Assembly: GCF_018977255.1 (NCBI RefSeq)
Contig: NW_024704742.1
Span: forward strand, 117,430,001 to 117,494,000
Direction: 5' to 3'
From: Callorhinchus milii
Lineage: Eukaryota
Length of the DNA stretch: 64,000 bases
A program made the position numbers and the translations under genes. The notes under the pieces were generated by a model, which was not told where the DNA came from, ran no database searches, and saw only the letters and a program-made list of their open reading frames with translations. This document shows positions 450 to 61,242 of the stretch, piece after piece; positions within the stretch are counted from its first letter, which is position 1, and each line of letters opens with the position of its first letter.

Positions 450-860
450 CCTGGCTCGGTTGGTAGCACTTTCATCTCTGGATTCAAGCTCCACGTGGGG
501 ACTTTGAATTCAGTCTAGCCTAATACTTCAGCACAGTACAAGGGAGAGGTCAACAATATCAGAGGTGCCATCCATCAGATGAGACGTTTATTTCTTCTGT
601 TGTGCGTGGCAAAAAAATCTCCCAGGAAAAAAAAACATTCACTTCATGTCAGTTTCATAGCCTTGGGACGTCCTCCTGACGTGAAAGGCACTAAATAAAT
701 GCAATTTGTTGTTGTTTATGTGACATCGCTGCACAAATTGGCTGCTGCATTTGCCTACAAAATACAGTCACTACATTTTACAGTGAATTCTGGAAAGACT
801 CAGAGACATCTCCCCAATGTAAAAGATTCTAGTATCAAATGCAACAATTATGATTATTAT
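450..860 (+). mobile_element. Old DeuSINE/SacSINE1-like relic
   Basis: Degenerate tRNA head, gaggtgcc..cagatgagacgtt core, aaattggctgctgcatttgcctac tail; family name from recalled similarity. Confidence 0.5.
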
Positions 861-1077
861 TAGCTTGCCAGAAAGTTTCAGTGAGTCCACTGAATCTTGA
901 CTCTGATATATTGTTTATAAAGCTCCATGAATGGAAGAAAAATTCAGAAAAATAATAGTTACAGAAAGACATTCCCAAAGATAAGTTTGTATAGAGTGAG
1001 TATATCGTGCTAATGCTTTTTCTCGTACTTTTATAACTTGAGTTGTATGTTCATTTCAGATTTGATTCATTTTTCAG

Positions 1078-2258
1078 ATGACAACTCGATCTTTAATGGT
1101 ACAATCAGGAGTTTTGCTGGAACCAAATGTGGATCTTCTGCTTGTAACAATTCTCAGCACAGAAGGCAAAATTCCGGCTCAGAATACAGACTTAACGAAA
1201 GTCTGTATATAAAGTCTGTAAAGTTTGAAGATGCCGAGAAGGCAATTCATGTGAACATTTCGAAGATAGCAGGACAATACCTAACCGGACCGTGGATGAC
1301 CATATTTATTCCTTCTGTTTATACAGCTGTTATTGCAATGAGTTTGCCTCTCAACTGCTTAGCAATCTTACTGTTCCTGTTTAAACTGAAATTGAAAACG
1401 CCGTCCATAATCTTCATGGTGAATTTGGCTATTGCAGATTTACTATTTGTGCTGTTGCTTCCCCTAAAAATCTCCTACCATTTCTCTGGCAATGACTGGG
1501 GATTTGGTTCTTTCACGTGCCGAATGGTTACTGGTGGATTTTATGCTTACATGTACTGCTCTGTGCTGCTGATGATGTGCATAAGTGTTGATCGATTTTT
1601 TGCTGTGGTTTATCCAATACGCTCAGTCTCATGGCGTAGCCCTAAACGTGCTAGTGTACTTTGCATTGTCATGTGGGTTCTGGCTATCACTGGTGCGTTA
1701 CCCCTTTTCCTTTCTGAACAAATGGTGTATATCAGCAAACTGAACATTACAACCTGCCATGATGTGCTACCTCTCTCTACGCTACAAAACCACTCACTGT
1801 ACTACTTTCCCATCTTGTGTACGCTGTTCTTTGTACTTCCCCTCATTGTGACCTCAATCTGCTACATATCCATTATCCTTACTCTTTCCTCTTCAAGTCT
1901 GTCGACCAAATGCAAAAAAACTCGTGCCATCAGTTTGGCTGTGCTTGTGCTTTTTGTGTTTATTGTCTGTTTTGCACCAACTAATATTCTTCTACTTATA
2001 CACTACTTGCATTTTTATCACAGTGCAAGTGACTCGATCTATTTTGCTTATCTCCTGTGCCTGTGCATCGGGAGTGTGAGCTCTTGCATTGACCCTCTGA
2101 TTTATTATTACGCCTCATCTTTGTGCCAAAAGCATTTGCAGAATCTGCAGTGCTGTGGGCAAGCAACTGAATCTGGGAGTAGTCGGATGGAATGTTTGAA
2201 TGATAAATTGGGAACCACATCTCCCATTGGTGACATCCACAAACAATTATTAACGTGA
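1078..2258 (+). CDS. F2R: Proteinase-activated receptor 1-like paralogue A, coding exon 2 (exon 1/signal peptide lies upstream of the window)
   Basis: 7TM class A GPCR with PAR1-type motifs: ISVDRFFAVVYP, NITTCHDVL (ECL2), CIDPLIYYYASS, C-terminal ..KQLLT. Acceptor ttcatttttcag| at 1077/1078, phase 1 as in other PAR genes. Candidate cleavage site NGTIR/SFAGTK. Confidence 0.85.
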
Positions 2259-3068
2259 ACCCCTCACATGGTGTTACACATATAGTATTTATTAGTTAAA
2301 GTTACTTTACATAGCAATTTTGCTTTATTCTATATTGCAATCCTTGCTCCTTGAGTAGGTATGTGTATGAATCCAGTGTAGATGTTGTCAGAGACTGAAA
2401 CTTGGTCAAAATGATGTTGTTCTTGTGGGGGCACTTCTCAGGCTTTCACCCATTTCAGTTTGGTTCTGGATAAAGCACATTCCGGATCATTGTTCAGCGT
2501 TAATGCTTTCATAAGCACTTGAACATTTCGATCCCATGCATGGCATAACAACTAGCTTCTTGCAGACATAACATGATGGCATATTTGTCAAGTCATAGAA
2601 GAAACTGCTCCTCAGGCTCTTAGTTTTTGTTTAGATTAAATTATGTAGAACATTAAGCCACAGAAACAGGACACTGCCCCAACTAGTTTGGGTTATTGTG
2701 TAATCGACTTGAGTCTCCTTTACCATTCCTAATCCTGTCTCCCACACCTCTTTATTCTATTAAATATCAAAATTCAACTTAGTACATATACGAATTAAGT
2801 CAGCAATAATGCATTCACTGAAAATGCAGAACTTTTCTGCCTTTATTTGCCAGAAGGATTGCAAATGATCGAACAAATTTATATATTGTACTTTTATAAT
2901 CAACAAAAATTCCATGGGGAAGGAATCTCCTCACTGTGATTTGGAATGGATTTCATTAGTGAATGCACTTACCTATTGGAAAGTTTTGTATAAGACAACC
3001 TTTTGAGCACCTCATTCAAAGAAACATGGAAAACCAGAATGGACAAACATTTCAGATGGGCAGTATTT

Positions 3069-3391
3069 GGAGTCTTGTAGCTCATTGGTTAGAGCACTCG
3101 CTTTGCAAGTGAGAGACTTGGGTTCAATCCCAGCCAGAGGGCGAAACCTTGGGCAAGTTTCCTTACTCCACACAGAGCCTAGTAATAATCCCTCCAAAAC
3201 CCAAAACAATAATAAATTGGTCATCTTCAATCTACGACTGTTTGTGGGACATTTCTGTGCGCAATTGGCTGCCGCGTTCACCCACAAATATACAGTCAAT
3301 TCACTTTACAGTATATTCTGTGAAGCGCTTTGGGACCTCCTCCCGACGTGAAAAGCGCTATATCAAATGCAAGGATTATTATTATTATTAT
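3069..3391 (+). mobile_element. Young tRNA-derived SINE (short form), (TTA)n tail
   Basis: A/B-box head (tagctcattgg...ggttcaatcc); near-identical to many other copies in the window. Confidence 0.9.
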
Positions 3392-3832
3392 TGTGTTACA
3401 ACAACAAAATTACATTTGTAAAGCGCTTTTCACGTCAGGAGAACATCCCGAGGCTCTGAAATAATATATTATATTATTGTCCACAGTACTTTGAGTCAAC
3501 ACACAACCAAGAAGCATAGAAGCATAACTGTAAGAGGAGTGCAAACCAAAATGCCACATTACAGGAACCAGAAAACCTGAAGACTTTCAAATTATATTTA
3601 CTGTTGCACCAAACTGTTGAGTGGTTTAAAAAAGGAAAATGATGTTGAAATCTTTCAAATGAATGAAATGTACTATTTCAGGTTTGCAATGAAGAAAGAT
3701 TTACTTGTTGAGTTCTATTACAAGTTTTCAGAACAAGAATGAAACTGGATATCATGATGATGATGCTTGTTGTTCACATTCTTTATCGCTATTTTTACCA
3801 TTTTGTATCTAATATTTAAATATATTTTTTCA

Positions 3833-3838
3833 AATAAA
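3833..3838 (+). terminator. Candidate polyadenylation signal of PAR1-A
   Basis: AATAAA at the end of an AT-rich 3'UTR-like stretch; use not demonstrable from sequence. Confidence 0.35.
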
Positions 3839-3954
3839 TTGAACGAAATGAAAAAGTAAAAACTTTGCAAATGTTTACTGCTACTTCAGCAATCTTATCA
3901 TGTAAATATGTATCACAAACCTATTCATAGATTGAGCATATGACTTTCTGTGTA

Positions 3955-4350
3955 GAGGATGGCTCAGTTGATAGCAATCTCATCTCAGAGACAGAAGATT
4001 GTAAATTTTAAGACTCACCGCAGGACTTTGAGCTTATTGTCTGGAAGGTGCTGCCTTATGCTAATAAGATGTTAAAAATTGAGCTGCCCATCTGCCAGTT
4101 CAGTTGAATGTTAAATATCCCATGGTACTGTTCAGAAATAAAGAGGGGTCTCTCTTGGTATTCTGGCCAACGACCTCAGATAGAATTTTTCATTTATTTC
4201 ATGGCTGTTTATGGGATATTTTTGTCTGCAAATTGTTTGGCATGTTCGCCTATAAAATATAGTCCCTACACTTTATAGGCGATGGTGTGAACCTCTTTGA
4301 CACATCCTCCCAGTGTGAAAGGCACCATATTAAATGCAAGGATTATTATT
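3955..4350 (+). mobile_element. Old DeuSINE/SacSINE1-like relic
   Basis: ggctcagttgatagc head, atcccatggtactgttc core, L2-type tail. Confidence 0.55.
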
Positions 4351-5034
4351 TTTTATTTTATTTATCTCCAGAGACCCATTCTCAGCACATTGATGATTCC
4401 AATCAGATATTAAATGCACTCTGTTTGGCAGCGGCTAACCTATCTCCTGTTGAAATTTCCCTGTCTTAAAAAGGTTATTTAAGAATGTACAATATGCAAG
4501 TTTGCTTCCAGTTGAAGTATGTGCGTCAGGCAGATAAAATATTTAATAAGTGGCCTGAAAGTCTCAAATGGGAGAAGTACTGTATTAATATTGTGTAAGC
4601 CTATCCACTCTAACAATAATAATGCAAATCTTTACAGCACAAACTAGTTTTATTTGAATTCTATCTCGGCAAGACAAAGTGTTGACTTCTAGTTCAGAAC
4701 AAAAGAGCTACTGATTCATTTCCACAAGTCCAGTGTCATTTGTTGAAGTAAAGTTAGATTATATTGTTGTTTTGTTTTATGTGCAGTCCACTGGGTCCCA
4801 TCTCCTGACAGATCCATTGATCCATTACCTCCATTGCCAAGCCCCACCATACCACTCCCACCTTCTGTGACTGTACAGGCCCAGATCCTCCCTCTGCACA
4901 GCTATCACTAACCACTTTCATCTCCCTTCCTGTATGCCTCGCCACTGATGGGCAAGTTTTCTGCTATGCTGCCCCCTTGCTGTGGAACTCAATCCCTGTG
5001 TCCCTCCTTCTTGCCCCTCCCTCTCCACCTTCAA

Positions 5035-6500
5035 AACAACAACAAAAGCAACAAACAACAAAATTACATTTGTACAGCACCTTTCACATCAGGAGGACGT
5101 CCCAAGTCGTTGGACAGACAAAGTTATGGACCCGAGCTGGGGTCGGTGTGGGTGAGGGTGGAGGGCAGGGGGGGAAACAGGGAGCTCGAAAGCACGGTCG
5201 AAGAGGAGGGTCTTGAGATGGGTCTTGAAGGTGGCAAGGGAGGGGATGAGGTTGAGGGACTGCGAGATGGAGTTCCAGAGGGTGAGGGCAGAGTGGCAGA
5301 AGGTCCGCTCACCAACAGTGGGGCGAGCGAGGCAGGGGACGTGAAGCAGGCCGGAACCCGCTGAGTGGAGGGAGCGAGCAGGATGGGGTAGGGGGTTAGG
5401 AGGTCCCGGAGGTAGGGGGGAGCAAGACCATGGAGGGCTTTGAAGGTGAGGACCAGGATTTTGAACTGTATCCTCTGTGTGATGGGAAGTCAGAGGAGTT
5501 GGGTAAGGATGGGGGTGATAGAGTCACGGAGCCTGGTGCGGGAGAGGACACAGGCTGCAGAGTTCTGGATGATCTCCAGTCTATGGAGGGAGGAGTTGTA
5601 GATACCGAAAAGCAATGAGTTTGCATAGTCGAGCCTCGATGTAATGAAAGCATATATAAGGGTTTCGGTGGCCTGCGGTGTGAGACAGTGGCGGAGGTGG
5701 GCGATGTTGCGGAGGTGGATAAAGGTAGAGTGGGTCATGGTGGAGATGTGGGGTAGAAAGGATAGTTGAGGGTCAAACAAGACCCCAAGGTTCCGGACTG
5801 GTTTAGCAAGGTACAGTGTGCAACCGTGGATGGTGATGCTGTCAGTGCCTGAGGTGAGGAGGCGCTGAGGGGAGCCAATCAAGAGGGCCTCGGTCTTGTT
5901 GACGTCCAACTGAAGAAAGTTAGCTCTCATCCAGGACTTGATGTTTGACAGACATTCTGTCACGACAGCAGTAGTCCTGAAATCAAGGGTGGAGGCAGAG
6001 AGGTGGAGTTGGGTGTCATCCACATATATGTGGAAGTTGACCCCATATCTGCGGATGATGTCACCAAGAGGGAGCATATAGATATTGAAGAGGAGGGGAC
6101 CAAGGACAGAGCCCTGAGGAACACCACACAAGACGATGTGGGGGCTAGAGGAGAAACCATTTGTGGAGATGAAGTGGAAGCGTTGTGAGAGATACAATCT
6201 GAAACAGTGAAGGACAGAGCTGTGAAGGTTGAAGTGAGAGGAGAGTCAGTGGAATGAGGATAGAGTGGTCGACGGTGTCGAAAGCAGCAGAGAGGTCAAG
6301 GAGGACGAGGAGGCAGAGGGAGCCCTGGTCGCAGATGGACAGAATGTCATTTGTCACTTTGACCAAAGCTGTTTCTGTGCTGTGGGCGACACGGAAACCC
6401 AATTGGAGGGGTTCGAGAAGGGAATGGCGGGACAGGAAGGAACGAAGCTGAGAAGCAACAACTCATTCTAGGACCTTGGAGAGGAAAGGGAGGTTGGACA
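5035..6500 (-). mobile_element. L2-clade LINE, 5'-truncated and decayed
   Basis: RT motifs ([33 protein letters not shown]); (TTG)n tail at 5035. Confidence 0.9.
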
Positions 6501-9230
6501 CCTGCCTTAAGATCTATTTATTCTATGTACTATTGGCCTGCTTCCCCCACCCCCTCCCACAAGCTTCTCCTCCCTCAGCTCCATCTTCACTCAGCCGGGG
6601 GTGTGGGGGTGGGGGATCTTTTAAGCCATGACTGAAGACCTTCCTCTTCGACTGTCACCTCTACGGTCACCTCCTTCATCCCCCTGGCTCGGTGTCAGAC
6701 TCTGCCATTGTTAAGTGCGCCGAGATGCTGTCCCATGTGCAGAGCGCTATATAAATGCAAGTTGTTGTTGTGTCAGACTCCCTGACAGCTGTGTGAATTG
6801 CTTTGACACATCCTACAATAACTGTGCTATGTGAAGGTAAATTGCTGTTTTGACTATCTTCAAAATAAAGATTTGCTATAAAGCCACATTTAGGGTGCAT
6901 TGATGAACAGTGATGCTATCAATGCCTGAGGTGCGGAGGTACTGACGGGAGCCAAACCAGAGGGCCTCTGTTTTGTCAACTTGGTTCACACAAACCGAAA
7001 AATTTCCTTTGCCACAATAAATAAGTAAAGTGAAGTATGAGTTTTTACTCAGAATAAGCAAAATATTGTTGTTTTCTACAGTTCCACATGGAAAAGCTGA
7101 CATCATTTACTTTTCTTCTCACATATCATTCTCTGGTGGAACTAACCTAGCCGGTTTCCTGAAATAACTGAAAACAATTGTACACTACCCGAACACAATT
7201 TACATGTATATAGCGCCTATTTTATCAGGAAGCCACCTGAAAGTGCTTCACAGTTGTGGTGGCAGGAGTGGGGGTGGGTTGATAAGCAAATCTTCTTAGA
7301 GCTGAACTAGTAACCAGGTGAGGTGCTTACTACTGGAATATCGGAATTGAGGCAATCCTCTGCAGTGGCCTCAGATAGACCAGTTCCTCAGCCAGGGCAG
7401 ATCCATAGTACGCCTAGACACGACTGATGTCAAACAAGCAACCTGATTCATCAGCAGGACTTGGGAAATCCAGACTGGCACTGGGGGCAAGGAACCTTGC
7501 ACGTCACTCAGTTGGGGGTGTGGGAGGTTGGGGGGGCTGGGTCTTTTAAGCCATGACTGAAGACCTTCCTCTTCGACCGTCACCTCTACGGTCACCTCCT
7601 CCCTCCTCCCTCCTATACAAATGTAATTTTGTTGTTGTTGTTATGGGTATGGTAGTTCTCGCTGGATAAGAAGCGGGTGCTTGCCAGCCAGTGCTCTCAA
7701 TGGCAAATTATATGGTTTTAGTTGATAGAAACTCTTGGTTCTTACTAAGCTGGGCCCAATAATTTGTGGAATTAGGCCACTCCCTGCAACTCTCAGGGAG
7801 TGGCCATTCCATTTCAGATATGTGTACATGGTATGCATTTGTGAAACTTCTTATGTTTGGTCTCAATACCAAGATTTTATCTGAATATACAATAACAAGA
7901 ACTGCGATTGCTTCACGTCAGTCTGTGAAGAGATTGGAATCTTTTTATTCCTGGGGAAGGGGGAAGGGGGAAACATCCTAGATTTCTCTTTGATTGACTT
8001 TTGTTTTTGGTCAGCCGGGCGTCTGACGCAGGCGGAAACCCATCACCATGCTTAAGAGGAATTGATTGATTCAAAGCAGAGTATTACTGATTGACTCGCT
8101 GTGCATTCCCAGCATTTTCTGTTTCAATTTCCAATTCAGGCTGCAAGAAAAGGATTGGGAATGCGGATAAACGGTAGCCTGTTTTTTTTAAATTACAGCC
8201 TCCGATGGGACATTAAAGCTCTGCCTTTCGTTTTATAAAAAAAAAGGCAGAATTTTTTGCCCGTTTGCCTATGCTATGCTGCATTCTTTTTAATAAAACA
8301 ACGTGAGTAAAATTGCTGAAGACCGATCCGAACAAATCAACTTTCAAACTTGGTGGAGAGCAAAACACAAAAGTCATACTATCAGCAAACAGTTGAGGTT
8401 TGTTAAGCTGCGAGGAGGTGATATTTTGGAAATGGCCATATAAAGACCGGGATCGGTGGGGTTAACTATAGATTAGCAAATTAATGCATTCGGGGGTCTT
8501 TTAAATGGCAATGCAATACTGCAACGCTAAGGAGAGGGCAGCAAAAGGGTGGGCAGCGAGTGACTCAGTTCCCTGTGAGTGTATTCTCTACACGTTCCAC
8601 ATGTTCTGTGAGAAGAGGGAGGATCTTGAATGTAATTCTTATCGCATCAGATTAGACCTTTCCCCCCCATCCCTCCTGCAAAGTTCCTGGCAGTCAATCC
8701 CAATAACGCACTCGTGATAATCATAATTACTATTATTATTATTATTATTATTATCATCATCATCGTTGCAACACACTGGAAAATGCGCCCTTGAAAGTTG
8801 CCACATTGCACCGAACTCCGCGCAACGGCTTTGCTGCGAGTTGTTACCCCCGAAGCGACGAAGATTTCTTTCCCGTTTCTCGCCGCTGCGCCACTCCCAA
8901 AAGGGAAATAGGTTTGGAATCGTTTCACGGGGATCGCATCTTTTACACCTTTGGTACCGGCGATCTCACCCCCAAAAAATATCGCCTCCGCTCTGCAGTC
9001 TATGCTCGTGTTTGCAAAGGCGGTTGTGGCACAGCAGTGGTCTCCGGAGGGGGACGACGAGGGCACTTGGGGAGTAATTGCACGAACTTGGGATCCGGTT
9101 TGTGCACAAGTGTCTCTCTTTGCTTCAAACGCTTCCCGGAATCGATGGGTTCGTTATCTGATCACCGGAGCTGAGAGTCGCCACGTTTGGATCGGATCAG
9201 AAGAACGTCACTCAGGAATGCGGAGCCGAG

Positions 9231-9272
9231 AGTGAGAGAGTGAGACAGACAGAGAGAGAGAGAGAGAGAGAG
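9231..9272. repeat. (GA)n microsatellite
   Basis: Seen directly. Confidence 0.9.
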
Positions 9273-9340
9273 TGAAGTCCGGACTGATCTGCTCCGAGGG
9301 CAGAGCGTGTGAGCATCGCCACAAACTGAGCCCCAGCATC

Positions 9341-9393
9341 GCAGCAGCAGCAGCAGCAGCAGTAGCAGTAGCAGCAGCAGCAGTAGCAGTAGC
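9341..9393. repeat. Compound (GCA)/(GTA) trinucleotide repeat in PAR1-B 5' region
   Basis: Seen directly. Confidence 0.9.
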
Positions 9394-9514
9394 CATCGTC
9401 TGCGCGGCCACTTGGCGTCGATTGCCCCGGAGTTCGCCGGTGGAAGAGACTGATTCGGGATCGCAGTTCGGAGCAGCACAAAGCCCTGTGGCTTTCTCAT
9501 TCCCCCCCGACAGT

Positions 9515-9581
9515 ATGGGTGGGGGAGTGGGGCTTGTGCTCTGCATCGCGCTGCTCCGCGCTGTGTCGGCTCGAAATCCTG
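9515..9581 (+). CDS. F2R: PAR1-like paralogue B, coding exon 1 (signal peptide MGGGVGLVLCIALLRAVSARNP-G)
   Basis: ATG at 9515 in the CpG island, hydrophobic signal peptide, donor CTG|gtaaga, phase 1 matching the exon 2 acceptor. Confidence 0.8.
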
Positions 9582-9691
9582 GTAAGAGCACTGCTGCCTT
9601 TACACAAGGATTACACCCCAATCACTTGCCAACAATTATTTGCTGTGCGGGGGGGGGGGGGGGACACACAATGTTTTGCCCCCCAAAAAGG

Positions 9692-9935
9692 ATAATAATA
9701 ATAATAATAATCCTTGCATTTGATATAGCGCTTTTCACGGGAACACACTGTAAAGTGAATTGACTGTATATTTGTGGGCGAACGCGGCAGCCAATTGCGC
9801 ACAGCAATGTCCCACAAACAGTCGTAGATTGAAAATGACCAATTTATTATTGTTTTCGTTTTTTGGAGGGATTATTATTAGGTGTGTGGAGTAAGGAAAC
9901 TTGCCCAAGGTTTCACACTGCCTGGAATTGAACTC
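9692..9935 (-). mobile_element. Young SINE, 5'-truncated, PAR1-B intron
   Basis: Reverse complement of the SINE consensus. Confidence 0.85.
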
Positions 9936-12654
9936 GATTTTAACGGCGTAGTCCCGAAATAAACAGGGAATACGAACAGTGGAATAAGGTTGGGAGTCCG
10001 GAGAGTGGAGGCATTGGGCAGACTTTGGTTTTCTGATTTGATTCAACACATTTATTTATCTGTTCCATGAATGGATCATTTTTTTTNGGTGGGGGAGATC
10101 ATTTGTTGGGCTAAGTGAGTGTGTGCGTGAAACTTTCGCCATGAATGGTTTCCATGGTTTGTTTAACTGTTGGATCCTCAATTGTCCCTAAACAAAAGTA
10201 CAGGGTTTAAGAGCAGAGTTTGAGGAGGGATCTGCAGCGTTGCTTCTTTCAAACAGAGATTTGATAGTTTTCTTTCAGGAAATAACATTATGGGATGTAG
10301 TTTGGGAGATATGTGAAAGGCAAACTAGATGGATCTTGGTGACTTTTCGTCTAGCATTTCTCATGTTGTTATGTTCTCTCACAGACAAGTGCTGGCAATC
10401 TGGTCCATTTCTCATGATTGTTATTTATGCACGGATCAGGATTAACCACTGATTTATAATAATATAATAATCTTTGCATTTTTATATAGCCCCTTATCAC
10501 ATCGTTGAGACATCAAAATATAAAGTCAATTCACTTTACAGTACATTCTGTGAAGCGCTTTGAGATGTCTCGACGACGTGATAAGTGCTATATCAAATAC
10601 AAGGATTATTATTATTCAGTTTTGATCCAAGGTTGGAAGGTAAAAACAAATCTAAACCTTTGAAACAAAACCAAAATTACTAGAAATTTGTACCAAGACA
10701 ATCAGGATATGATAGAGAAACACAGATTAACGTTTCTTCAATCTATATTGGAACATTTAAATGATACAGGGGTTTTCTCTTACTTTTAAAATCCTATCTC
10801 CTTTCTGACCAAGTGCTCTGCCCCTTTCACTTGTTTTCAGAGTTTGAATGCTGAATGCGTCACTGAGCCCATGGAATTCACAAAGAAAATATAAACAGTT
10901 GCCTGTTTCTGCAAAGAATCAGTAATTCACTACTGACAGCAAGTTTAAAAAAACATTGGACTGTCAAGTTTTTGGGGAAACTACAAGAGGCTGTTTAGTG
11001 TTTCCTCTGAAAAACTCATGGCTTTGGTGATAACTCTTCATTTTTGACACTAGGATAGAAGAAATAAGCATTGCATCTGATAATGTGTTTTATCAGGTGG
11101 TTGTGACATTTGAAAGTGGTTCGCAAGATTTTACTGTAAAGTGATTAACTGTGCATTTGTAGGCAAACACACCAGTCAATTTGTGCACAGCAGTGTCCTA
11201 CAAACAGCCACAAAGTAAATGACCAATTTTATTTGGGGGGATTATTTGGCCATGGTACCTCATTTAAGGCAGCAAACAATCTGACAGTATATAAGAAGTT
11301 ATAAATATTTTACATAACTTGTACAACAATCTAGAACAACATTATTGAGGTTTAACTCTTTCTGTACTTTATCTTGATGGATTTATACTCAGAGGAAAGC
11401 AAGAAAATGCACAGAATGGTTTGAAATGTGAAAAATCTTAAGGATGATTTCCAGGAGGAAACATATTAGGCTGCTGAAGCACAGCTTCTCCTAAAATACA
11501 ACAGCTAACCCCTGTAAATTAGTAGTGTTTACTACTCTCCTGCCTGTGTTTACGTCATTGGAGCCTTAAATGAGGAAGGCAATGAAGTGGATTAATCAAC
11601 GAGTAAACAATCTGACTCACTCTAGTAATTACAGGATTGCGCTCAAGGGTGAAAACGTGGATGTCTGCAGTGCAAACTCTGTGCCTTGAGGCATCCACCT
11701 GACTTGAAAGGTGCTACACAAATATAACTCGTTGTTGTTGCTGTTGCTGCATAATCTCAGAGCAAAATAAGTTGAACAATCAAATAATGTTTTATTTCTT
11801 TATTATTATCATTGACTGGTATTGCCTTAATAAGTCTTGCCTAAAAGTAATTTGTTATGTGTATATAAAATATATTTTTTAAAAATTAAAATGCATTTAA
11901 AATTACGTTTAGAATATATGATTTGGAAAAGTGATATTTTCTCCTCAATAATCACATAGAGAAATAGGAACTACTTTTGCAATTAGTTGTATTCAGTCAT
12001 AAATAGTGATTTAAAACAGATCTTTATTTTCCAGTCACAGACTTATCATCTTATTGTGTATGATGAAAAAATAATAAAATCAATATTTGTATATTCTGAC
12101 TTTACTTCGTACAGAGTAATCCTGACCTCTAGTCACCTTGTTGATATATAAACAGCCCCGGAACACTGGGGCTGCAGCATAAGGCTTTTCCTTCTCAGGA
12201 CAATTCAGCTGCAATTCAGCTACAAATATATATTGATGCAAGAGATTTAACTCCAAATTTACCTCAAGCAATCCTGTGGATAAAATCATTCACTTCATAG
12301 CTGTTTGTGGGACAAAGCTGTGAGCAAGTTGGCTGATACGTTTACTTGTAAAATACACAGTCACTACACTTCACAAAGCAGTGAAGCACTTTGACAGGTT
12401 TCAATGATGTTACAAAGTGGTATAACAAATGGTAGGTAACAGAAGCATCTGGGCAAATCCTGTGGGTAAAAATTCCATTTAGTATTACGTACCATGCAAC
12501 AGATTGGAACCATTATTTACAGCAGTTTCATTAACCCAAGAAAGTGTATAAACATCCTATGTGTAACATTGTCATTTATCATTGTCTCCCCAAACTGGAA
12601 AACTGTACAATATTTTTATTATTGAATCATCAGATGAGGATTTTTGTTTCTCAG

Positions 12655-13859
12655 GTAACTCATCAAAGGCAGTAGCCCCTCCTAGAAGCTTTGGAGGTAT
12701 TATTCAACTCTCTGAATATATTGATCTTGCACTTATCGAAGGTGAAGATTCAGGTCAGTTCAGCGGAAGTGGATCGAAAGATGCTCCTGGAATTGATTCT
12801 GATGAAAATAAAGTCATGGATTCTGTCAAAGACTCGAAGAAACCCAATCTACATTATGTGGCTATTTCGAAGATAACAGGACAATATCTAACCGGGCCAT
12901 GGATGACCATATTTATTCCTTCAATTTATACAGCTGTTATTGCAATGAGTTTGCCTCTCAATTGCTTAGCAATCTTACTGTTCCTGTTTAAACTGAAATT
13001 GAAAACCCCGTCCGTAATCTTCATGGTGAATTTGGCTATTGCAGATTTACTATTTGTGCTGTTGCTTCCCCTAAAAATCTCCTACCATTTCTCTGGCAAT
13101 GACTGGGGATTTGGTTCTTTCACGTGCCGAATGGTTACTGGTGGATTTTATGCTTACATGTACTGCTCTGTGCTGCTGATGATGTGCATAAGTGTTGATC
13201 GATTTTTTGCTGTGGTTTATCCAATACGCTCAGTCTCATGGCGTAGCCCTAAACGTGCTAGTGTACTTTGCATTGTCATGTGGGTTCTGGCTATCACTGG
13301 TGCGTTACCCCTTTTCCTTTCTGAACAAATGGTGTATATCAGCAAACTGAACATTACAACCTGCCATGATGTGCTACCTCTCTCTACGCTACAAAACCAC
13401 TCACTGTACTACTTTCCCATCTTGTGTACGCTGTTCTTTGTACTTCCCCTCATTGTGACCTCAATCTGCTACATATCCATTATCCTTACTCTTTCCTCTT
13501 CAAGTCTGTCGACCAAATGCAAAAAAACTCGTGCCATCGGTTTGGCTGTGATTGTGCTTTTTGTGTTTATTGTCTGTTTTGCACCAACTAATATTCTTCT
13601 ACTTATACACTACTTGCACTTTTATCACAGTGCAAGTGACTCAATGTATTTTGCTTATCTCCTGTGCCTGTGCATCGGGAGTGTGAGCTCTTGCATTGAC
13701 CCTCTGATTTATTATTACGCCTCATCTTTGTGCCAAAAGCATTTGCAGAGTCTGCAGTGCTGTGGGCAAGCAACTGAATCTGGGAGTAGTCAGACAGAAT
13801 GCAAGAACAGTAAAACAGGGAGCTCCACTGATACTGTCTCCCAGAAATTACTTATCTAA
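12655..13859 (+). CDS. F2R: PAR1-like paralogue B, coding exon 2 (spliced product about 423 aa)
   Basis: Acceptor tttttgtttctcag| at 12654/12655. Cleavage site APPR/SFGGII followed by an acidic stretch. Same PAR1 7TM motifs as copy A. Lies directly upstream of F2RL1, as F2R does in other vertebrates. Confidence 0.88.
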
Positions 13860-25168: not shown

Positions 25169-25229
25169 ATGGCTGCCCTGGTGTGTGGTGTGTCCGTGCT
25201 GTTGGGGGTGATTCCCGGCTGTGTTACAG
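25169..25229 (+). CDS. F2RL1: PAR2 coding exon 1 (signal peptide MAALVCGVSVLLGVIPGCVT)
   Basis: gcgATGG Kozak-like context, hydrophobic peptide, donor CAG|gttagt, phase 1. Confidence 0.78.
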
Positions 25230-26856: not shown

Positions 26857-27935
26857 CTGGTCGAAGCTTTGCTGGCGAAACTGTTGATAATAGCTCTGAC
26901 TTGAAGGTTGACGACTTTGCTAAGGACGTACTCACCGGTGGATTGACTACAGTCTTCTTGCCGTTGGTCTACATTATTGTGTTTATCATTGGTTTGCCCA
27001 CAAACTCAATAGCATTGTGGGTCTTTGGCTACCGAACCAAAAAGAAACATCCGGCAACTATCTACATGGCCAATTTGGCATTGGCAGATCTTTTGTTTAT
27101 CTTTTGGTTCCCTTTGAAGATTGCATATCATGTGAATGGCAATAATTGGATTTTTGGAGAAGGCTTATGCAGAGTGCTTGTGTCTTTCTACTATGGGAAC
27201 ATGTACTGCTCAATTCTCTTCATGACCTCCCTTAGTGTGCAAAGGTACTGGGTCATTGTAGATCCAATATCTCAATCTAAGAAAAAGACTACAATTGCTT
27301 ATGCTGTTTCCATTTCTATTTGGATACTAATTGTATTGGGTACTATGCCATTGTATCTAACTACTCAAACTGCATACATCACTAACCTTGATATAACCAC
27401 CTGCCATGATGTCCTACCTGAATTGAAATTGTCTTCCACTATGTTTGATTACTTTACATCTTTGGCTATTGGTCTGTTCTTTTTTCCTGCAGTTTTGACC
27501 GTGATTGTATATGTACTCATGATCATGACACTGAAAGCTTCTTGTACTGAAGCGAACATTGGGAAAAGCCGTAGACGAGCAATTGAATTGATAATTACTG
27601 TTCTTATAATGTATTTAGTTTGCTTTACACCCAGCAATATAGTGCTTGTAGTTCACTATTATATGATAAAATTCTATGGCGTCAGCAATGTTTATGCTTT
27701 CTACATTGTGGCTCTTTGCCTCTCTAGCATCAACAGTTGCATTGATCCCTTTGTCTATTATTTTGTATCTAAAGACTTCAGAGACCATGTTAAAAATACA
27801 ATGATGTGTCGTAGTGTGAGGGCAGCAGAAAGGATAAGAGCTTCATTCACATCCATGAAAAATTCCAAAAAGTCTAATATTTACAGATCTACAAGAACTA
27901 CTAGTTCCACTGCTACGAGTAACACAAATTATTGA
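26857..27935 (+). CDS. F2RL1: Proteinase-activated receptor 2, coding exon 2 (spliced product about 379 aa)
   Basis: Pyrimidine tract + caccag| acceptor; GR/SFAGET cleavage site; PAR2-diagnostic SVQRYWVIV, LTTVFLP, TTCHDVLPE, CIDPFVYYFVSKDFRDHVKN; Ser/Thr-rich tail. Confidence 0.92.
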
Positions 27936-35839: not shown

Positions 35840-37722
35840 GAGAAGAGCAGCGGAGAAGTGAAAAGGGAAATAAGAAGGGCGAAGAGATTGTATGAGAAAA
35901 AAGTAGAGGAAACATAAAAGGTAACCCTAAGGTATTTTATAAGCATATCAAGAATAAAAGGTTAGTCAAACGTAGGGTGGGTCCAATTAGGGACCCAAGT
36001 GGAAATCTTCTTGTTGAGGCTGAGGGCATGGCTGATGTACTAAATAAGTACTTTGCAACTGTCTTCACAAAAGATGCAACCAATGCCACAATATCGCAGG
36101 AATGTGAACAGAAATTGGATGTGATAAAAATCAACAGAGAGGAGGTACTAAAAAGGCTGTCGGTGCTCAACATAGATAAGTCACCTGGTCCGGACGGGAT
36201 GCATCCTAGGTTACTGAGGGAGGCAAGGGTGGAAATAGTGGAGGCTCTGACCACATTCTTTCAATCCTCTTTGGACAATGGAGCGGTGCCAGAGGACTGG
36301 AAGGTTGCAAGTGTTACTCCCCTGTACAAAAAGGGGCAGAAGGATAAACTACAGGCTAATCAGCCTAACATCAGTAGTAGGGAAAATTCTGGAGACTATA
36401 ATCCAAACAATATAAATTCTCACTTAGAAAAATATGGTTTAATAAAGGACAGTCAACACGGATTAGTTAAAGGCAGATCGTGTCTCACAAACTTAATACA
36501 TTTTTTGATGAAGTGACTGAGAGTGGATGAAGGTAGTGCAGTAGATGTAGTTTATCTAGATTTTCAAAAGGCATTTGATAAAGTGCCACATAAGAGACTT
36601 ATAAACAAAGTAGAAGCCCACGATATTAAAGGAACTGTGGCAACATGGATCCAGAACAGGCAAGGAGACAAAAAGCAAAGAGTGATAGTAAACAGTTGCT
36701 TTTCTGACTAGAGGGGATATGTAGTGGTGTCCCTCAGGGCTCGGTATTGGGACTACTGCTCTTTCTGATCTATATTAATGATCTGGACCTGGATGTAGGG
36801 AAAACAATTTCCAAATTTGCAGACGATACTAAGCTAGGAAAAGTACTTATTGATGAGGAGGATAACACCAGACTCCAAGAGGACTTAGACAGATTGGTAA
36901 AATGGGCAGAAAAGTGGCAGATGAGGTGTAATATGGAGAAATGCGAAGTGTTGCATTTTGGTAGGAAGAATGAGGAGAGACAGTATAAGCGAGATGGTAC
37001 AATCTTAAAGGGGGCAAATGAACAGAGAGACCTGGGGGTCTACATAAGAAATCTCTAAAGGTGGCAGAACAGGTAGATAAAGCTGTTAAAAAAGCATACG
37101 GGATACTAGGTTTTATAAACGGGCATAGAATTCAAAAGTTAGGAGGTTATGTTGAATATTTATAAAATGCTGGTTAGGCCTCAGTTGGAGTACTGGTTCA
37201 ATTCTGGGCACCGCACTTTTGGAAAAATGTTAGGGCATTGGAGAGGGTGTAAAGGAGGTTTACCGGGATGGTACCAGGAATGAAGGACCTTAGTTATGAG
37301 GAGAGGTTAGCGAAACTAGGATTATTCTCCTTGGAGCAGAGAAGATTAAGAGGGGATTTAATAGAGGTTTCCAAGATCATGAGAGGATTTGATAGGTTGA
37401 ACCGGGAAAAACTGTTTCCACTGGCATGTGGGTCAGTAACCCGAGGACACCGATTTAAGATAGTTGTTAAAAGAAACAGAGGAGAGGTTAGGAATTTTTT
37501 TTTCACCCAGCGAGTTGTTCGGATCTGGAATGCATTACCTGAAAGGGTAGTGGAAGCCGATTCAATAACAACTTTTAAGAGAGCAGTAGATGGGTATTTG
37601 GGGAGGACTGGATTGCAGAGCTATGGAGAGAAAGTGGGCCAGTGGGATTGAGTTGGATTGCTCTTTTAGGAGCCGATGCAGACACAATCGGCCGAATGGC
37701 CTCTTTCTGTGCTGTATGATTC
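35840..37722 (+). mobile_element. CR1 LINE, 5'-truncated, frameshifted
   Basis: KSPGPDGMHPRLL, YLDFQKAFDKVPH, KFADDTKL, QRVVRIWNALP; CR1 3' end ..tgctgtatgattcta. Confidence 0.92.
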
Positions 37723-51639: not shown

Positions 51640-54600
51640 GCAATTATCATTGGGGACACAATGGTGAATGGATCAGGCAAGACGTTTCTGGAACCAAAGA
51701 CGTGACACTCACATGGTATGTTGCTTCCCTGACGCCAGGGTTGAATACATCATGGAACGGGTGCAAAACATTCTACTGGGGAAGGGTAACATCCAGAAGT
51801 TGTGGTCCATGTTGGGATCCATGACGTAGGGAAAAAAAGGGCTGAAATCCTACAGGAGAGGATATCAAAAGCTATGGAAAAAGCTAAAGAGCAGGACCTC
51901 AAGGTGGTGATCTCTGGATTACTCCCAGTGCCCCGTGCAGGTTCGTCGAACATTGGGACCAGTTCTAGGGCGGGTGGCGGGTGGACGGATTACACCCAAA
52001 CAGGGCTGGGACAAATGTCTTCGCAGGGAGGTTAACTAGTGCTGTGGAGAAGTGTTTAAACTAATTTCGAGGGGGGAAGGGAATCAGGATGTAGCATCAG
52101 AGAGAAGAAATAAGTTACATAGAAGGCTCGAAGAGATGAATAGCAATGCAATAATGAGTTGTCCAGAAAAAGGAGGGATTAGGCAGGGGGAGAAATGCAG
52201 AGCAGAATCAGTCAGTCTTGGAGTGCATGTGTGTAAATGAATGGAGTGTGACAAATAAGATTGGTGAACTGCAGGCTCAAGTTGACACATGGGGTTATGA
52301 TATAATGGCAATAACGGAGACTCAGCTCAAACAAGGGCAAGAATGGCTACAATGTATTCAAGAGGGATATGGAAAGAAAAAAAGGAGTGCGGAGTGGGAG
52401 AGGGGGTGGCAATATTGATCAAAGACATGTTTACAGCCCTGGAAAGAGATGATGTGCTAGAGGGTCCAAAAACAGAATCTATTTGGTTAGAATTAAGGAC
52501 CAGAAAAGGAGCTGTTACTCTGGTGTATACTACAGACCACCAAATAGTGGGAGGGAGATACACAAGCAAATCTGCAAGCAGATTTCAGAAAGATGCAAAA
52601 CCAATAGAGTAGTGATAATGGGGGACTTCTATTATCCTGACATAGACTGACAAAATAATAGTGTAAAGGGCAAGGAGTGGGGAAGGATTCCTGAAATTTG
52701 TGCAGGATAACTTTCTGTATAAGTATGTTTCCAGCCCAGCGAAGAAGGAAGCAGCGCTGGATCTAGTTCTGGGGAATTAAGTGGGTCAAGTGGAGTAGGT
52801 TTCAGTAAGGACAACAATGATCACCACATTATTAGGTTTAGAGCACTTACGGAAAGGGACAAGGAACAATCAAAGGTGAAGAGGGCTAATTTCAGTGAGT
52901 TAAAAAGAGAGTAAAAGAAAGATTGGCAGGTAAAACAGTTAATGAGCAACAGGAAGCCTTCAATGAGGAGATAGTTCAGGGACGGGGACAGACCAAATAC
53001 ATTCCCACAAAGGGGAAAGGTAGGTCATCCAAACTTCCCTGGATGAATAAGGAAATTGGGATTAAAATAAAACAGGAGAAGGAAGCTTATGGTAAATGTC
53101 GGGTCCAAAATACAGAAGATAATCAAATAGTATATAGAAAGTACAGAGGAGAACTGAAAAAGGAAATAGGAGGGGCAGAGAGATTGTATGAGAAAAGATT
53201 AGCGGGTAACATAAAAGGGAACCCTAAGATATTTTATAAGCATATAAAGAATAAAAGGTTAGTCCTTAATTGGACCCACCAACGAGGAAATCTTCTTGTG
53301 GAGGCAGAGGGCATGGCTATGTACTGAATGAGTAATTTGCATCTGTCTTCACAAAAGAAGAGGGTGCAGCCAATGCCACAGTAGCAGAGGAGAGGGTAGA
53401 GAAATTGAATAAGATAAGAATAAACTGACAGGAGGTACTAAAAAGGTTAACGGTGCTCAAGGTAGATAAGTCATCTGGTCTGGACCGGATGCTTCCCAAG
53501 TGACTAAGGGTTGAAATAATGGAGGCTGCAGCCACAATCTTTCAATCTTCCTTGAACACCGGGTGGTGCCAGAGGACTGGAGGATTGCAAATGTTACTCC
53601 CCTGTACAAAAAGGGGCAGTAACTATAGACCAGTCAGTTTAAAATCAGTCGTGAGGAAACTTCTGGAGACTATAATCTGGGACAAAATAAATTTTCACTT
53701 AGAAAAGTATGGGTTAATAAAGGATGGCCAACAAGGATTTGTTAAAGAAAAATTGTGTCTAACAAACCTGATAGAGATTTTTAATGAAGTAACAGAGAGG
53801 GTGGATGAAGGTAGTGCAGTTGATGTAGTTTATATGGATTTTCAAAAGGCGTTTGATAAAGTGCCACGTAAGAGACTTGTAAGCAAAATAGAAGCCCACG
53901 GTATTAAAGGGACAGTGGCAGCATGAATACAGAACTGGCTGGGATACAGAAAGCAAAGAGTGGTTGTGAACGGTTGTTTTTCTGACTGGAGGGAAGTGTG
54001 CAAGTGGTGTTCCCCAGGGGTCGGTATTGGGACCACCATTGTTTTTGATCTATATAAATGACCTGGATTTGGATCTAGGTATTGGGTATCTTTCAAACAC
54101 AAATTTTCTTTTAGGAAATAACATTATGCGATATAGTACAAAGGTAGTTTGGGACATATGTGCATGCGACTGCCAAGAAGGTGGAAGGTGAACTAGATGG
54201 ACCTTGGTCTTTTTNCATCTAGCATTTTTTATGTTCTTATAGGGAGTACAAATTTGAAGTTTTACAAATGATATTAAGCTAGGAAAAGTAGTAAACAGTG
54301 AGGAGGATAGTAGCAAACTGCAAGAGGACATAGACAGACTGGTAAAATAGGCAGATACGTGGCAGATGAAGTTTAATGTGGATAAATGCGAAGTAATGCA
54401 TTTTGGGAGGCAGTATGAGGAGAGGCCACATAGAATCTTAAAGGGGGTGAAGGAACAGAGAGACCTGGGGGTTCATATAAATAAATCTTTGAAGGTGGCA
54501 AGACAGGCAGATAAAGCTGTTAAAAAAAGCATACGGGATACTAGGCATTATAAATACGAGCATAGAATACAAAAGTCAGGAAGTTATGATGAACCTTTAT

Positions 54601-57345: not shown

Positions 57346-57784
57346 ATCCCCTACCACTGCAACTACCACTGAAACACTGACTGTTCAGCGGTTTGGGACA
57401 TTTTCCCAATATGAAAGACGCTATACAAATGTAATTTTGTTGTTGTTGTTGTAAATGACTCACTTTTAGGCAGGCTTATTTCTTTCCTTAAATTTTCGGT
57501 GAAAAAGCATTAAAAAGACCATCTAAAAAGGGAGTGAGACAAGAATCTTATAAAATTGGAAGCAAATAACTACTGATTACTTCAACAACGAGATTACGTT
57601 TGTATAGCACCTTTCACGTCGGGAGGACGTCCCAAGGCACTGATATGACACAATTACAGGCTGGATATGATGCAAGTTTGTAACCTTGGAGCCAGTTCAG
57701 CTCCAAGGAGATTCCTCTTACCTTTCCCCCAAGGCGGATAATAATAACAATAATAATAATAATATAATAATCCCTTTTTATAGC

Positions 57785-58998
57785 ATTTGTCCTCCTCGAC
57801 CTCTCTGCCACCTTCGACACTGTCGACCACTATCATCCTCATACACTGCCTCTCCTCACTTAATCTTGTGGACCTGCCCTTGCTTGGTTCAATTCCTATC
57901 TCTCTCACCATCTCCACTTTGCTGCTTCTACGGTTTCTCCTCCAGCCCCCACACTGTCATATCTGTCGTCCCCAAGGGCTCTGTCCTTGGCCCTCTCCTC
58001 TTTAATATCTACATTCTCCCCCTTGGTGACATCATCCGCAGACATGGGGTCAACTTCCATATGTATGCGGATGACACCCAACTCTATCTTTCTGCCTCCA
58101 CCCTCAACTCCAGGACCACTGCTGCCCTGACAGACTGCCTGTCGGACATCAAGTCCTGGATGAGGGCAAATTTCCTACAGTTGAACGTGAACAAGACTGA
58201 GGCCCTCCTGATTGGCTCGCGACAGCGCCTCTGGACCTCAGGCTCTGGCAGCATCAACCTCCATGGTTGCACACTACAATTCACCAAGCCAGTCAGGAAC
58301 CTAGGTGTCTTGTTCGACCCTCAACTGTCTTTTCTTCCCCACTTCTACGCCATGACCCGCTCTGCCTTCCCTCACCTCCATAACATCGCCCGACTCCGCC
58401 ATTACCTCACCCCTCAGGCTGTTGAAACTCTTGTTCATGCCTTCATCACCTCCAGGCTCGACTATGCAAATGCCCTACTTGTCGACCTTCCCAACTCCTC
58501 CCTCCACAGGCTGCAGGTAATCCAGAACTCTGCAGCCCATGACCTCTCCCGCAACAAACTCCGTGACCCCATCTCCCCCACTCTCGCCCGACTCCACTGG
58601 CTCCCTATCCTCCAGGATCAAAATCCTGGTCCTCACCTACAAAGCCCTCAATGGTCTCGCCCCACCCTACCTCTGTGACCTCCTAACCCCCTACCAACCC
58701 GCCCACTCCCTCCGCTCAGCAGGCCTCTGGCCTGCTCCACATCCCCCGACCCACCCGCCCCAACATTGGCGGGAGAGCCTTCAGCCACTCTGCCCCCAAT
58801 CTCTGGAACTCCATCCCCCAATCACTCCACCTCACCCTCTCCTTAGCCTCTTTCAAGTCCCACCTCAAAACCCTCCTCTTCGACCCCTCCATTCTCCCGC
58901 CTGACCCCTGCTCGGGTCTGAAATGCTGTACACTGTCCAGCACCTTGGGAAGTCCTCCTGACGTGAAAGGCGCTATACAAATGTAATCTTGTTGTTGT
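57785..58998 (+). mobile_element. L2 LINE 3' part
   Basis: [20 protein letters not shown] motifs; (TTG)n tail. Confidence 0.9.
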
Positions 58999-59652
58999 TA
59001 TCACTTCATTGAGACATCGCAAACTAGGTCAGTTCGGTATTAAACTATACCATTGTTAAGCGCTCCAAGATGCTACACTACGTGAAAGTGCTATATAAAT
59101 GCAAGATGTATTTGTAAGTGAATGCAGCAGCCAACTTGCACACAGCAAAGTTCCCAAACAGCCACAAAGCGATTGACAATTTACTATTGAGGATTGTTGG
59201 CCAGGATAGTCAATTGTCAGTTACTTGACATCTAACAAGCACAGATTCTATATAACTTATTATCCCAAATCAGACCCTGTATTGGAATGGTTCTATTTTT
59301 ATAATGCCTTATTATATCAACATCTCACTTAATTACTGCCAACAGCACTGACTGTTTTTATAGACAACCTCTCACATAACAGCTATGAGGTGAATATCCA
59401 AAAATCTGCAGGATTATTAACTGGGACACTTGGAGAAATTCCCTTTCATATGATGTTATGGGATCGTTAATGTCCACCTGAACAGGCATATGGAACCTTA
59501 GTTCTACATCTCATCTGAAAGACAGCACCTCTGACAATGCAGTGCTCCCCCAGTATTGTACTGGAATGTCATCTCTCCATTTTAAGGACTAGAAAGCTCA
59601 AGACCTTAAATGCTGAGCCTGAATCCACCATCTTCTGACCTAGAAATTAAAA

Positions 59653-61242
59653 ACTGCCATCATCACGCCCACCCTGAAAAAACCCTCCCTTGATGCGTCG
59701 CAGCTATCAAGTTACCGGCCCATCTCCAACCTCCCCTTTCTCTCCAAGGTCTTGGAAAGAGTTGTCGCCTCCCAACTGCGCTCTTTCCTTTCCACCCATT
59801 CTCTTTTTGAACCCCTTCAGTCAGGTTTCCGTGCTGCCCATAGCACAGAAACTGCCCTGGTCAAGGTCACCAATGATATCCTGACCATCTGTGACCAGGG
59901 CTCCCTCTGTCTCCTCGTCCTCCTCGACCTATCGGCAGCATTTGATACGGTCGACCACGCTATCCTACTCCACCGCTTGTCCTCCCACCTCAACCTACAA
60001 GGCACTGTCCTTGAATGGTTTAGGTCGTACCTTTCTCACCGTCTTCATTTTGTCTCGACGAATGGCTTCTCCTCCACCCCCCGCACTGTCTCATGTGGTG
60101 TCCCTCAGGGCTCTGTCCTCGGTCCCCTCCTCTTCACCCTCTATATGCTCCCCCTTGGTGACATCATCCGCAGACATGGAGTTAACTTCCACATGTATGC
60201 GGATGACACCCAACTCTACCTTTCCTCCTCTACTCTCAACTCCACGACCACCGATGTCCTGACAGCTGCCTGTCCGACATCGAGTCCTGGACGAGAGACA
60301 ACTTTCTTCAGCTCAACGTGCGAAAAACCGAGGCCCTCCTGATTGGCTCACGTCAGCGCCTCCGCACCTCAGGCGCTGACACCATCAGCATCCAAGGCTG
60401 CACTCTCCACCTCTCAAAGCCAGTCAGGAACCTTGGCGTTTTGTTCGACCCTGAGCTGTCCTTTCTCCCTCACATCCGCACCACAACTGGCACCGCCTTC
60501 CATCACCTCCGGAACATCGCCAGACTACGGCATTACCTCACCCCTCACTCTGCTGAAACCCTGGTTCACGCCTTTGTCACCTCAAGGCTGGACTATGGGA
60601 ACTCTCTCCTCGCCGGCCTTCCCGCCACCTCCCTCCACAAGCTGCAGGTCATTCAGAACTCTGCAGCTCGTGTACTGTCCCGCACCAGGCTTCGGGACCA
60701 CATCACTCCCACCCTCGCTCGCCTCCACTGGCTCCCCATCCCCCAGAGGATTGATTTCAAGATCCTCATCCTCACCTACAAGGCCATTCACGGCCTTGCT
60801 CCCTCCTACCTCTCCAACCTACTATCCCCCTACCTACCTGCCCGTACCCTCCGTTCCTCTGGCTCCGGTCTGCTCCACGTCCCCCGCCCCAACCGCCCTA
60901 CCATCGGTGGTCGGGCCTTCAGCCTCTCAGCCCCCAGGCTCTGGAACTCCATCCCCCAGTGCCTTCGCCTTGCTTCCTCCCTTTCCTCCTTCAAGGCCGG
61001 TCTCAAAACCTTTCTCTTTGACCGAGCCTTCAGCTCCCCTCTCGACTCTCTTCCCCCTCCTCGCTCCCTCCCTTCCCTCCCCTCACCCTGACCATTTCCC
61101 CCCTCCTCGCTCCCTCCCTTCCCTCCCCTCACCCTGACCATTTCCCCCCTGCTCGGGTCATGACCCAACTGTGCAGCGCCTTGGGACGTCCTCCTGACGT
61201 GAAAGGCGCTTTATAAATGGAATCTTGTTGTTGTTGTTGTTG
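59653..61242 (+). mobile_element. Young L2 LINE, 5'-truncated, one frameshift near 60265
   Basis: Near-intact RT (ORFs 59752..60342 and 60318..61091); tandem duplication in the 3'UTR (about 61052-61148); (TTG)n tail. Confidence 0.92.

Follow-up and report, generated by a model that had tools for sequence, protein, structure and literature searches.

Paired PAR1-type receptors of cartilaginous fishes: cores probably kept alike by gene conversion, ectodomains diverged

Two neighboring receptor genes of the elephant shark, Callorhinchus milii, have nearly the same core and very different ends. Is this a recent duplication, an error of assembly, or an old pair of paralogs whose cores are rewritten together, and do the different ends answer to different proteases? 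The genes lie in a stretch of 64,000 nucleotides (assembly GCF_018977255.1, contig NW_024704742.1, positions 117,430,001 to 117,494,000 of the forward strand; hereafter the window), which is the F2R locus of this species, with the order PAR1 copy A, PAR1 copy B, PAR2. The reading that we favor, with a probability of about 0.65, is that A and B are ancient tandem paralogs of the protease-activated receptor PAR1 whose cores stay alike by recurrent conversion while the ectodomains have diverged, B being a high-affinity thrombin receptor and A lacking the thrombin docking site.

The motifs that an initial annotation had reported for the two copies were all found again on re-reading the sequence, and its picture of one core joined to two different ectodomains was borne out. 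The core tracts of A and B (Table 1) align without gaps and differ at 15 of 924 nucleotides; eight differences are synonymous (~217 sites) and seven non-synonymous (~707 sites), so that the proportion of synonymous differences (pS) is 0.037, and a run of 524 nucleotides (1408-1931) contains none at all. The DNA flanking the tract, by contrast, cannot be aligned between the copies, and the ectodomains are 28% identical. Since silent sites are homogenized beside saturated ends, protein constraint alone cannot explain the identity of the core.

Could the shared core have been created by assembly or polishing? Four of 15 sequencing runs were compared with positions 820-3050 of the window. No run is recorded as RNA, ten of the 15 were guessed to be RNA by software, and X1, X2 and X3 are likely RNA. 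In X1 and X2, which belong to one study, a contig carries the A ectodomain, skips the upstream intron and then has 25 letters encoding the end of the signal peptide of the annotated A protein (P0001), from which it follows that copy A possesses an exon 1 of its own, which lies outside the window. The initial annotation had staked its reading on the presence of such an exon, and two of the three likely-RNA runs join A exon 2 to its signal-peptide exon. A tblastn search of the window with A exon 1 (29 residues) gave B exon 1 as its sole match (59% over 22 amino acids). X3 yielded a single 2518-nucleotide contig that runs from the B 5' end through a core with B alleles to the B 3' end; the run gave no contig from the A ectodomain, which is not evidence that A is silent. 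In X12, a whole-genome-like run from another study, an A intron-ectodomain contig and an A 3' contig each enter the core with A alleles. Both paralogs look expressed, as far as runs guessed to be RNA can tell.

In favor of an artifact, none of the contigs listed for 820-3050 spans the whole copy A gene, and in X12 the depth of the core, at 12-17, does not reach double that of the flanks (9.3-9.5), depth not being a measure of copy number here. The independent DNA and likely-RNA contigs, those of X1 and X2 that join A ends to the core among them, nevertheless make it so very unlikely that little room is left for it, and the same pattern with the same boundaries recurs in 12 shark assemblies and is absent from six batoids. 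In contigs of X1 and X12, from two studies, the B-type base G1932 occurs together with the A-type base C1944. Neither assembled copy has this haplotype, which hints at a segregating conversion or at an allele private to the reference.

Occurrence in other cartilaginous fishes

The comparison used a pair of proteins, one of A type and one of B type, from each of 19 species: the chimaera, 12 sharks and six batoids. Four unpaired proteins (Mustelus B, two Mobula B, Narcine A) and 14 bony-vertebrate proteins were added. Truncated isoforms, fused models and near-duplicate Logan rows were omitted, as was Rhinoraja A, whose N-terminus is missing, from the ectodomain counts and the trees of the ends.

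From transmembrane helix (TM) 2 to TM5 (B residues 148-300), the identity between the two copies within a species is 100% in C. milii, lies at 94.8-99.3% in all 12 sharks and falls to 60.1-75.8% in all six batoids. Orthologs from six shark lineages average 85.5-89.4% over this segment, below the paralogs within a species. Columns dividing four sequences 2:2 were counted over the 15 pairs of six sharks, pairs that are not independent of one another. Splits by species and by paralog number 249 and 0 in the core, and 21 and 1 in TM6b-TM7, whereas they number 4 and 125 in the ectodomain, 8 and 149 from TM1 to intracellular loop (ICL) 1, 9 and 69 in ICL3-TM6a, 6 and 62 in proximal helix 8, and 1 and 63 in the tail. 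In batoids the splits favor the paralog in every region. In a tree of the core, which needs 11 label changes, A and B of the same species fall together in sharks and the chimaera, and batoid sequences group by paralog. In a tree of the ends A stands apart from B with one label change (support 95/95), and in a tree of TM1-ICL1 plus ICL3 shark A forms one clade (100/99). The approximately unbiased (AU) test rejects a single shark-A clade for the core (p 2.9e-5) and for TM6b-TM7 (p 1.1e-4).

Because of these identities, splits, trees and tests, the tract is placed, at the level of sequence comparison, from TM1 to helix 8 in the elephant shark and over TM2-TM5 plus TM6b-TM7 in sharks, and as lapsed in batoids. 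Grouping by species inside the tract and by gene outside it is how gene conversion is recognized, and we hold with high confidence that the likeness of cores within species reflects long-lived, region-limited, recurrent conversion. In S. torazame both copies carry a rare Leu-to-Gln change in extracellular loop (ECL) 2 that no other row has. The PAR1 duplicates of gar (P0057, P0081) and lungfish (P0109, P0114) are not homogenized, their cores being 81% and 65% identical.

Some annotations of these genes are unusual. In lungfish the annotation gives two PAR1 second exons a single common first exon, and one PAR1-like protein of gar has an ectodomain that is short and poor in acidic residues. Two NCBI isoform models, P0128 (Chiloscyllium plagiosum) and P0132 (Cetorhinus), join A exon 1 to B exon 2, and A and B of Pristiophorus have identical first 22 residues; read-through splicing, conversion of exon 1 or annotation error could each account for these.

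How old is the duplication? B of C. milii groups with elasmobranch B (95/95). The A ectodomain of C. milii scores 15.8 bits on a profile of elasmobranch A and 1.8 on that of B, ectodomain and tail of the B copy show the reverse, and none of 1000 shuffled sequences reached the profile scores of the A ectodomain or tail. A search with the A N-terminal region alone had P0001 as its sole match (1 of 14 candidates). By the profile scores C. milii A is likely the ortholog of elasmobranch A, and such orthology would place the duplication before chimaeras and sharks split, some 400 million years (My) ago. Other data pull the opposite way: the branch of C. milii A is long, an A clade that includes it has support of 69/47, and its ectodomain is by plain identity 23% alike to shark and ray A and 25% to B, which is uninformative. 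The AU test against a duplication confined to the chimaera, with A and B of C. milii as one clade, is borderline (p 0.048). That the elephant shark pair is such a recent duplication (or a chimera), unrelated to the shark A gene, is still highly improbable in our view: it fits poorly with ends so diverged next to a core of such low pS, with A ends that match the A and not the B profiles, and with the firm position of B, and the AU result, borderline as it is, also speaks against it.

Protease sensors, ligand pocket and intracellular output

Arg or Lys followed by a ligand beginning S/T-F is kept in 41 of 41 ectodomains (19 A, 22 B). B-type ectodomains have Pro at P2 in 20 of 22 cases, Arg at P1 in 16 and Lys in six, and all 22 have 7-16 acidic residues (Asp plus Glu). 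Among the 19 of A type, P2 is Pro in seven and Ala or Gly in eight, P1 is Lys in 15, and all have 2-6 acidic residues and carry 1-4 sequons for N-glycans beyond the cut. In C. milii the segment between cut and TM1 has 11 acidic residues per 66 in B, which also has an extra upstream sequon at P10, and five per 56 in A, none of them clustered; the acid-poor A stalk has sequons at P5 (N-G-T), P13' and P29', with Ile at P2 and two Cys. For comparison, 77 of 100 bony-vertebrate PAR1 matches were parsed by pattern. All 77 have 8-17 acidic residues, 42 lack Pro at P2, and 64 have a sequon at P5-P8. Thrombin prefers Arg/Pro.

Judged by composition, an acidic hirudin-like stretch follows the cut in B and is absent from A. 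Because of the acidic residues in all 77 bony-vertebrate PAR1s and the A and B counts, B is by sequence the ancestral form, and the one mark common to the whole A lineage is that the acidic stretch has been lost. Two claims of the initial annotation, that A lacks the acidic cluster and that B is by sequence the thrombin-type copy, thereby extend to the orthologs. Its other marks of A do not: Ile at P2 occurs in one of 19 A ectodomains and the P5 sequon in three, and neither the position of the Cys pair nor the HRR motif is conserved among them. An aliphatic P2 together with a P5 sequon is found in 16 of the 77 ordinary bony-vertebrate PAR1s, including that of Xenopus, and these features were accordingly rejected as defining A and kept as traits of the species. 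Xenopus PAR1 is activated by thrombin (a supporting paper was sought and not found). From the ectodomains we predict, somewhat on the favorable side of even odds, that A and B are tuned to different proteases.

Two further features of the ectodomains stand out. Acidic Ser-Gly motifs number one to three in 22 of 22 B and none in 19 of 19 A, and at least one is present in 62 of the 77 bony-vertebrate PAR1s. Ser-Gly beside acidic residues is the usual context of glycosaminoglycan attachment in the available text of PMC4598785, so PAR1-B may be a part-time proteoglycan. In six of 19 A ectodomains (P0123, P0017, P0133, P0126, P0022, P0016) one Cys stands on either side of the scissile bond. Because the number of Cys near the A cut is 0, 2 or 3 and never 1, the sequences suggest a disulfide able to hold the cut pro-peptide.

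Do the two copies read their ligands alike? The first four ligand residues are similar in A, B and the PAR2-type neighbor, so peptides SFAGTK and SFGGII are unlikely to be copy-selective. The residues of human PAR1 that line the tethered-ligand pocket are Y183, H255, D256, L258, F271, Y337, Y350 and Y353 (PMC12033368). Mapped through the Saimiri sequence, these positions fall inside the converted tracts, and all eight residues are kept in both copies of C. milii. Y183, H255, D256, F271, Y337, Y350 and Y353 are unchanged in 26 of 26 chimaera and shark rows; the sole change in sharks is the Leu-to-Gln common to both S. torazame copies, and F271 and Y337 vary in some batoid A. The near-identical pocket claimed at the outset thus holds, for the named residues, in the chimaera and sharks, whereas near-identical intracellular loops are confined to C. 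milii. In 10-residue windows, TM1-ICL1, ICL3 and helix 8/tail of sharks have 38-54% A/B identity, the tail less. An ICL3-TM6a island of 20 residues (48-54%) lies between tracts of 90-100% upstream and 78-92% downstream, and in it Gly replaces Lys in 17 of 17 elasmobranch A. From what holds for G-protein-coupled receptors in general, these differences in ICL3 and the tail would be expected to alter G-protein or arrestin coupling. In the text available of PMC3924837, divergence peaks inside converted genes are read as a mark of selection, but purifying selection by itself is also said to let conversion go on for longer in coding DNA.

Layout of the locus

Three rhodopsin-family open reading frames (ORFs) are found on the plus strand by ORF list and Pfam (Table 1). 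P0001, recorded as PAR1-like of Callorhinchus milii, has 421 amino acids, of which the last 392 are 100% identical to copy A; the splice acceptor before A exon 2 reads ...TTTTCAG. In a search of PDB sequences the best solved structure for A was PAR1 (9d4z_R, E 2e-112), with PAR2 at 5e-72. Exon 1 of copy B lies in CpG-rich DNA (CpG-rich 9001-9500). The third gene, which from position and sequence we take to be PAR2-like, is 38% identical to A and is not converted. Its predicted pro-region is very short, and its predicted ligand, SFAGET, is almost that of copy A, so cross-activation is possible. Intergenic DNA contains decayed reverse-transcriptase fragments (putative long interspersed nuclear elements) and many short repeats, seen in ORF translations (5040-6500, 57600-61200, 35900-37650, 52900-53900).

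Table 1. Features of the F2R locus of C. milii, in window coordinates
Feature	Position	Strand	Basis
PAR1 copy A exon 2, coding part	1078..2258	+	ORF; P0001 residues 30-421; Pfam 7tm_1; spliced contigs X1, X2
A-specific ectodomain	1078..1259	+	sequence reading; A-profile match
Copy A predicted cut	after Arg codon 1107-1109	+	motif NGTIR/SFAGTKCGSSAC...HRR
Copy A tethered ligand SFAGTK (predicted)	1110-1127	+	sequence reading
Homogenized tract of A (N-terminus base, TM1-TM7, helix 8)	1260..2184	+	alignment to B
A-specific C-terminal tail	2185..2258	+	sequence; 10.4 bits on A tail profile, 0.9 on B
PAR1 copy B coding exon 1 (signal peptide)	9515..9581	+	joined to exon 2 gives P0121 exactly
PAR1 copy B exon 2, coding part	12655..13859	+	ORF; P0121 match; Pfam 7tm_1; X3 contig
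B-specific ectodomain	12655..12866	+	57.5 bits on shark/ray B profile, 3.2 on A
Copy B predicted cut	after Arg codon 12684-12686	+	motif APPR/SFGGII...SEYIDLALIEGED...DSDE
Copy B tethered ligand SFGGII (predicted)	12687-12704	+	sequence reading
Copy B acidic and Ser-Gly-rich stretch	12711-12806	+	sequence reading
Homogenized tract of B	12867..13791	+	alignment to A
B-specific C-terminal tail	13792..13859	+	sequence; tail profiles
PAR2-type neighbor (F2RL1-like), predicted exon 1	25169-25229	+	read by eye
PAR2-type neighbor (F2RL1-like), exon 2	26857..27935 (about)	+	ORF, Pfam; exon bounds read by eye

Competing explanations and known systems

In the reading that we favor, A and B would be tandem PAR1 paralogs, likely older than the chimaera-shark split, and recurrent gene conversion would keep the receptor cores alike while the ectodomains diverge. 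A similar S/T-F-x-G/A ligand would enter a common pocket (ECL2, TM5-7) in both copies, so that conversion there could be tolerated or favored, and selection would remove tracts that reach into the ectodomain or, in sharks, also into TM1-ICL1, ICL3 and the tail. The acidic stretch of B would dock exosite I of thrombin. For the acid-poor, N-glycosylated A, in which P1 is mostly Lys, either high thrombin would be required or cleavage would fall chiefly to trypsin-like proteases that are independent of the exosite. Given a tract from TM1 to helix 8, the two elephant shark copies would be expected to share their G proteins; the outputs of shark A and B probably differ as well, and conversion appears to have ended in rays and skates.

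Several points, besides those on the age of the pair, weigh against this reading. The shark evidence is protein-only, synonymous homogenization being measured in C. milii DNA alone, and the tandem arrangement in sharks is deduced from equal-sized contigs and adjacent accessions. A ectodomains evolve fast, and relaxed constraint would give the same; purifying selection alone can sustain conversion, so no adaptive role is required to explain the shared core. Carried to its end, this line of thought makes conversion a neutral by-product, with ends that escaped after indels and an A ectodomain that is relaxed and has no distinct function. The long A branches in the tree of the ends agree with it, as do the six of six batoids that retain both copies after conversion stopped, and conversion restricted to coding regions in yeast is ascribed to purifying selection (PMC3924837, available text). 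We consider it improbable, however: the cut site and S/T-F ligand are kept in 19 of 19 A, and the shark ICL3-TM6a island, with its uniform change of Lys to Gly in elasmobranch A, persists between homogenized tracts.

Are both copies instead thrombin receptors? A could be a slow, low-affinity, PAR4-like one, and the pair could be kept for different thresholds, tissues or desensitization, by way of separate promoters and tails, and not for a second protease. According to the accessible text of PMC6440139, the hirudin-like domain of PAR1 recruits thrombin via exosite I, and PAR4, without that domain, needs more thrombin and is still cut by it. By analogy, A may be thrombin-poor rather than thrombin-blind, an acid-poor ectodomain not being necessarily blind to thrombin, which is a further point against the favored reading. 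The seven A ectodomains with Pro at P2, the bony-vertebrate PAR1s that share the P5/P2 pattern of C. milii A, tails that are paralog-specific in all groups, and the A 5' contigs of X1 and X2 beside the whole-B contig of X3 all suit two thrombin receptors. On the other side, the prevalence of P1 Lys, the Ala or Gly at P2 and the downstream sequons found throughout A fit poorly with optimization for thrombin, and we judge this alternative unlikely while still deserving weight. An extended form of the favored reading is put forward tentatively, at rather less than even odds: A would be a second, thrombin-independent PAR1, conversion would have held one pocket for ~400 My while selection separated two sensors (and in sharks two G-protein faces), and B would possibly dock thrombin through glycosaminoglycan on its acidic Ser-Gly repeats.

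What follows if the pair is as we describe it? A family usually given as four genes gains an unstudied PAR1 paralog across the cartilaginous fishes, and region-limited gene conversion would here have gone on for a very long time. The limits of the tract part the segments of PAR1 that can be exchanged (TM2-TM5, TM6b-TM7) from those that cannot (ectodomain, TM1-ICL1, ICL3, tail) and so make direct predictions for chimera experiments; if A is indeed a second, thrombin-independent PAR1, the pair would be a natural chimera series mapping the segments for protease input and signaling output. There is also a practical side, in that trees built on the core misdate the duplication, and RNA counts or probes based on the core cannot separate A from B.

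Gene conversion is itself a known process, and existing annotation already labels the two genes PAR1-like; the clade-wide PAR1 pair is real and apparently undescribed in print. The available text of a 2016 survey of the PAR family (PMC4771116) has no mention of shark, Callorhinchus or conversion, and that of a zebrafish paper (PMC3408399) mentions uncharacterized Par1-like duplicates. A literature search by title and start of abstract, with subscription journals and supplements mostly outside its reach, found no described shark PAR1 duplicate or conversion of PAR genes.

How does the pair compare with known systems? It has the features of the PAR1 subfamily: a class A seven-TM fold closest to PAR1, a signal-peptide exon plus one large exon (for A from the spliced X1 and X2 contigs, for B from the model equal to P0121), and a basic P1 before S/T-F. 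Like vertebrate PAR1 (F2R) it has two-exon genes with a signal peptide, the conserved pocket and the DRF/DPxxY motifs, is followed on the same strand by a PAR2-type gene, and has the acidic stretch in B; unlike it, there are two tandem copies, and A lacks the stretch that all 77 parsed bony-vertebrate PAR1s have. PAR4 and PAR2 resemble A in having no acidic docking site, and the A ligand is like that of the PAR2-type neighbor, but the A core is that of PAR1 (100% to B over TM2-TM5, against 38% to the neighbor). In CCR2/CCR5, adjacent class A paralogs are likewise converted repeatedly and by lineage with the N-terminus spared (PMC8877049, as far as its available text goes). There, however, the extent varies among mammal lineages, whereas the PAR1 tract is homogenized in 12 of 12 sharks and the chimaera, and the spared part of PAR1 serves as a substrate for proteases and carries the tethered ligand. 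Red and green opsins also have divergence peaks at functional sites (PMC3924837, same text), and segments of BMP8A/B, DDX19A/B and TUBG1/2 have remained closer between paralogs than between orthologs for more than 100 My (PMC2720389, available text). Compared with such long-lived partial concerted evolution, the PAR1 pair would reach about 400 My if A is orthologous throughout, its tract differs in size between chimaera and sharks, and in batoids it has ceased.

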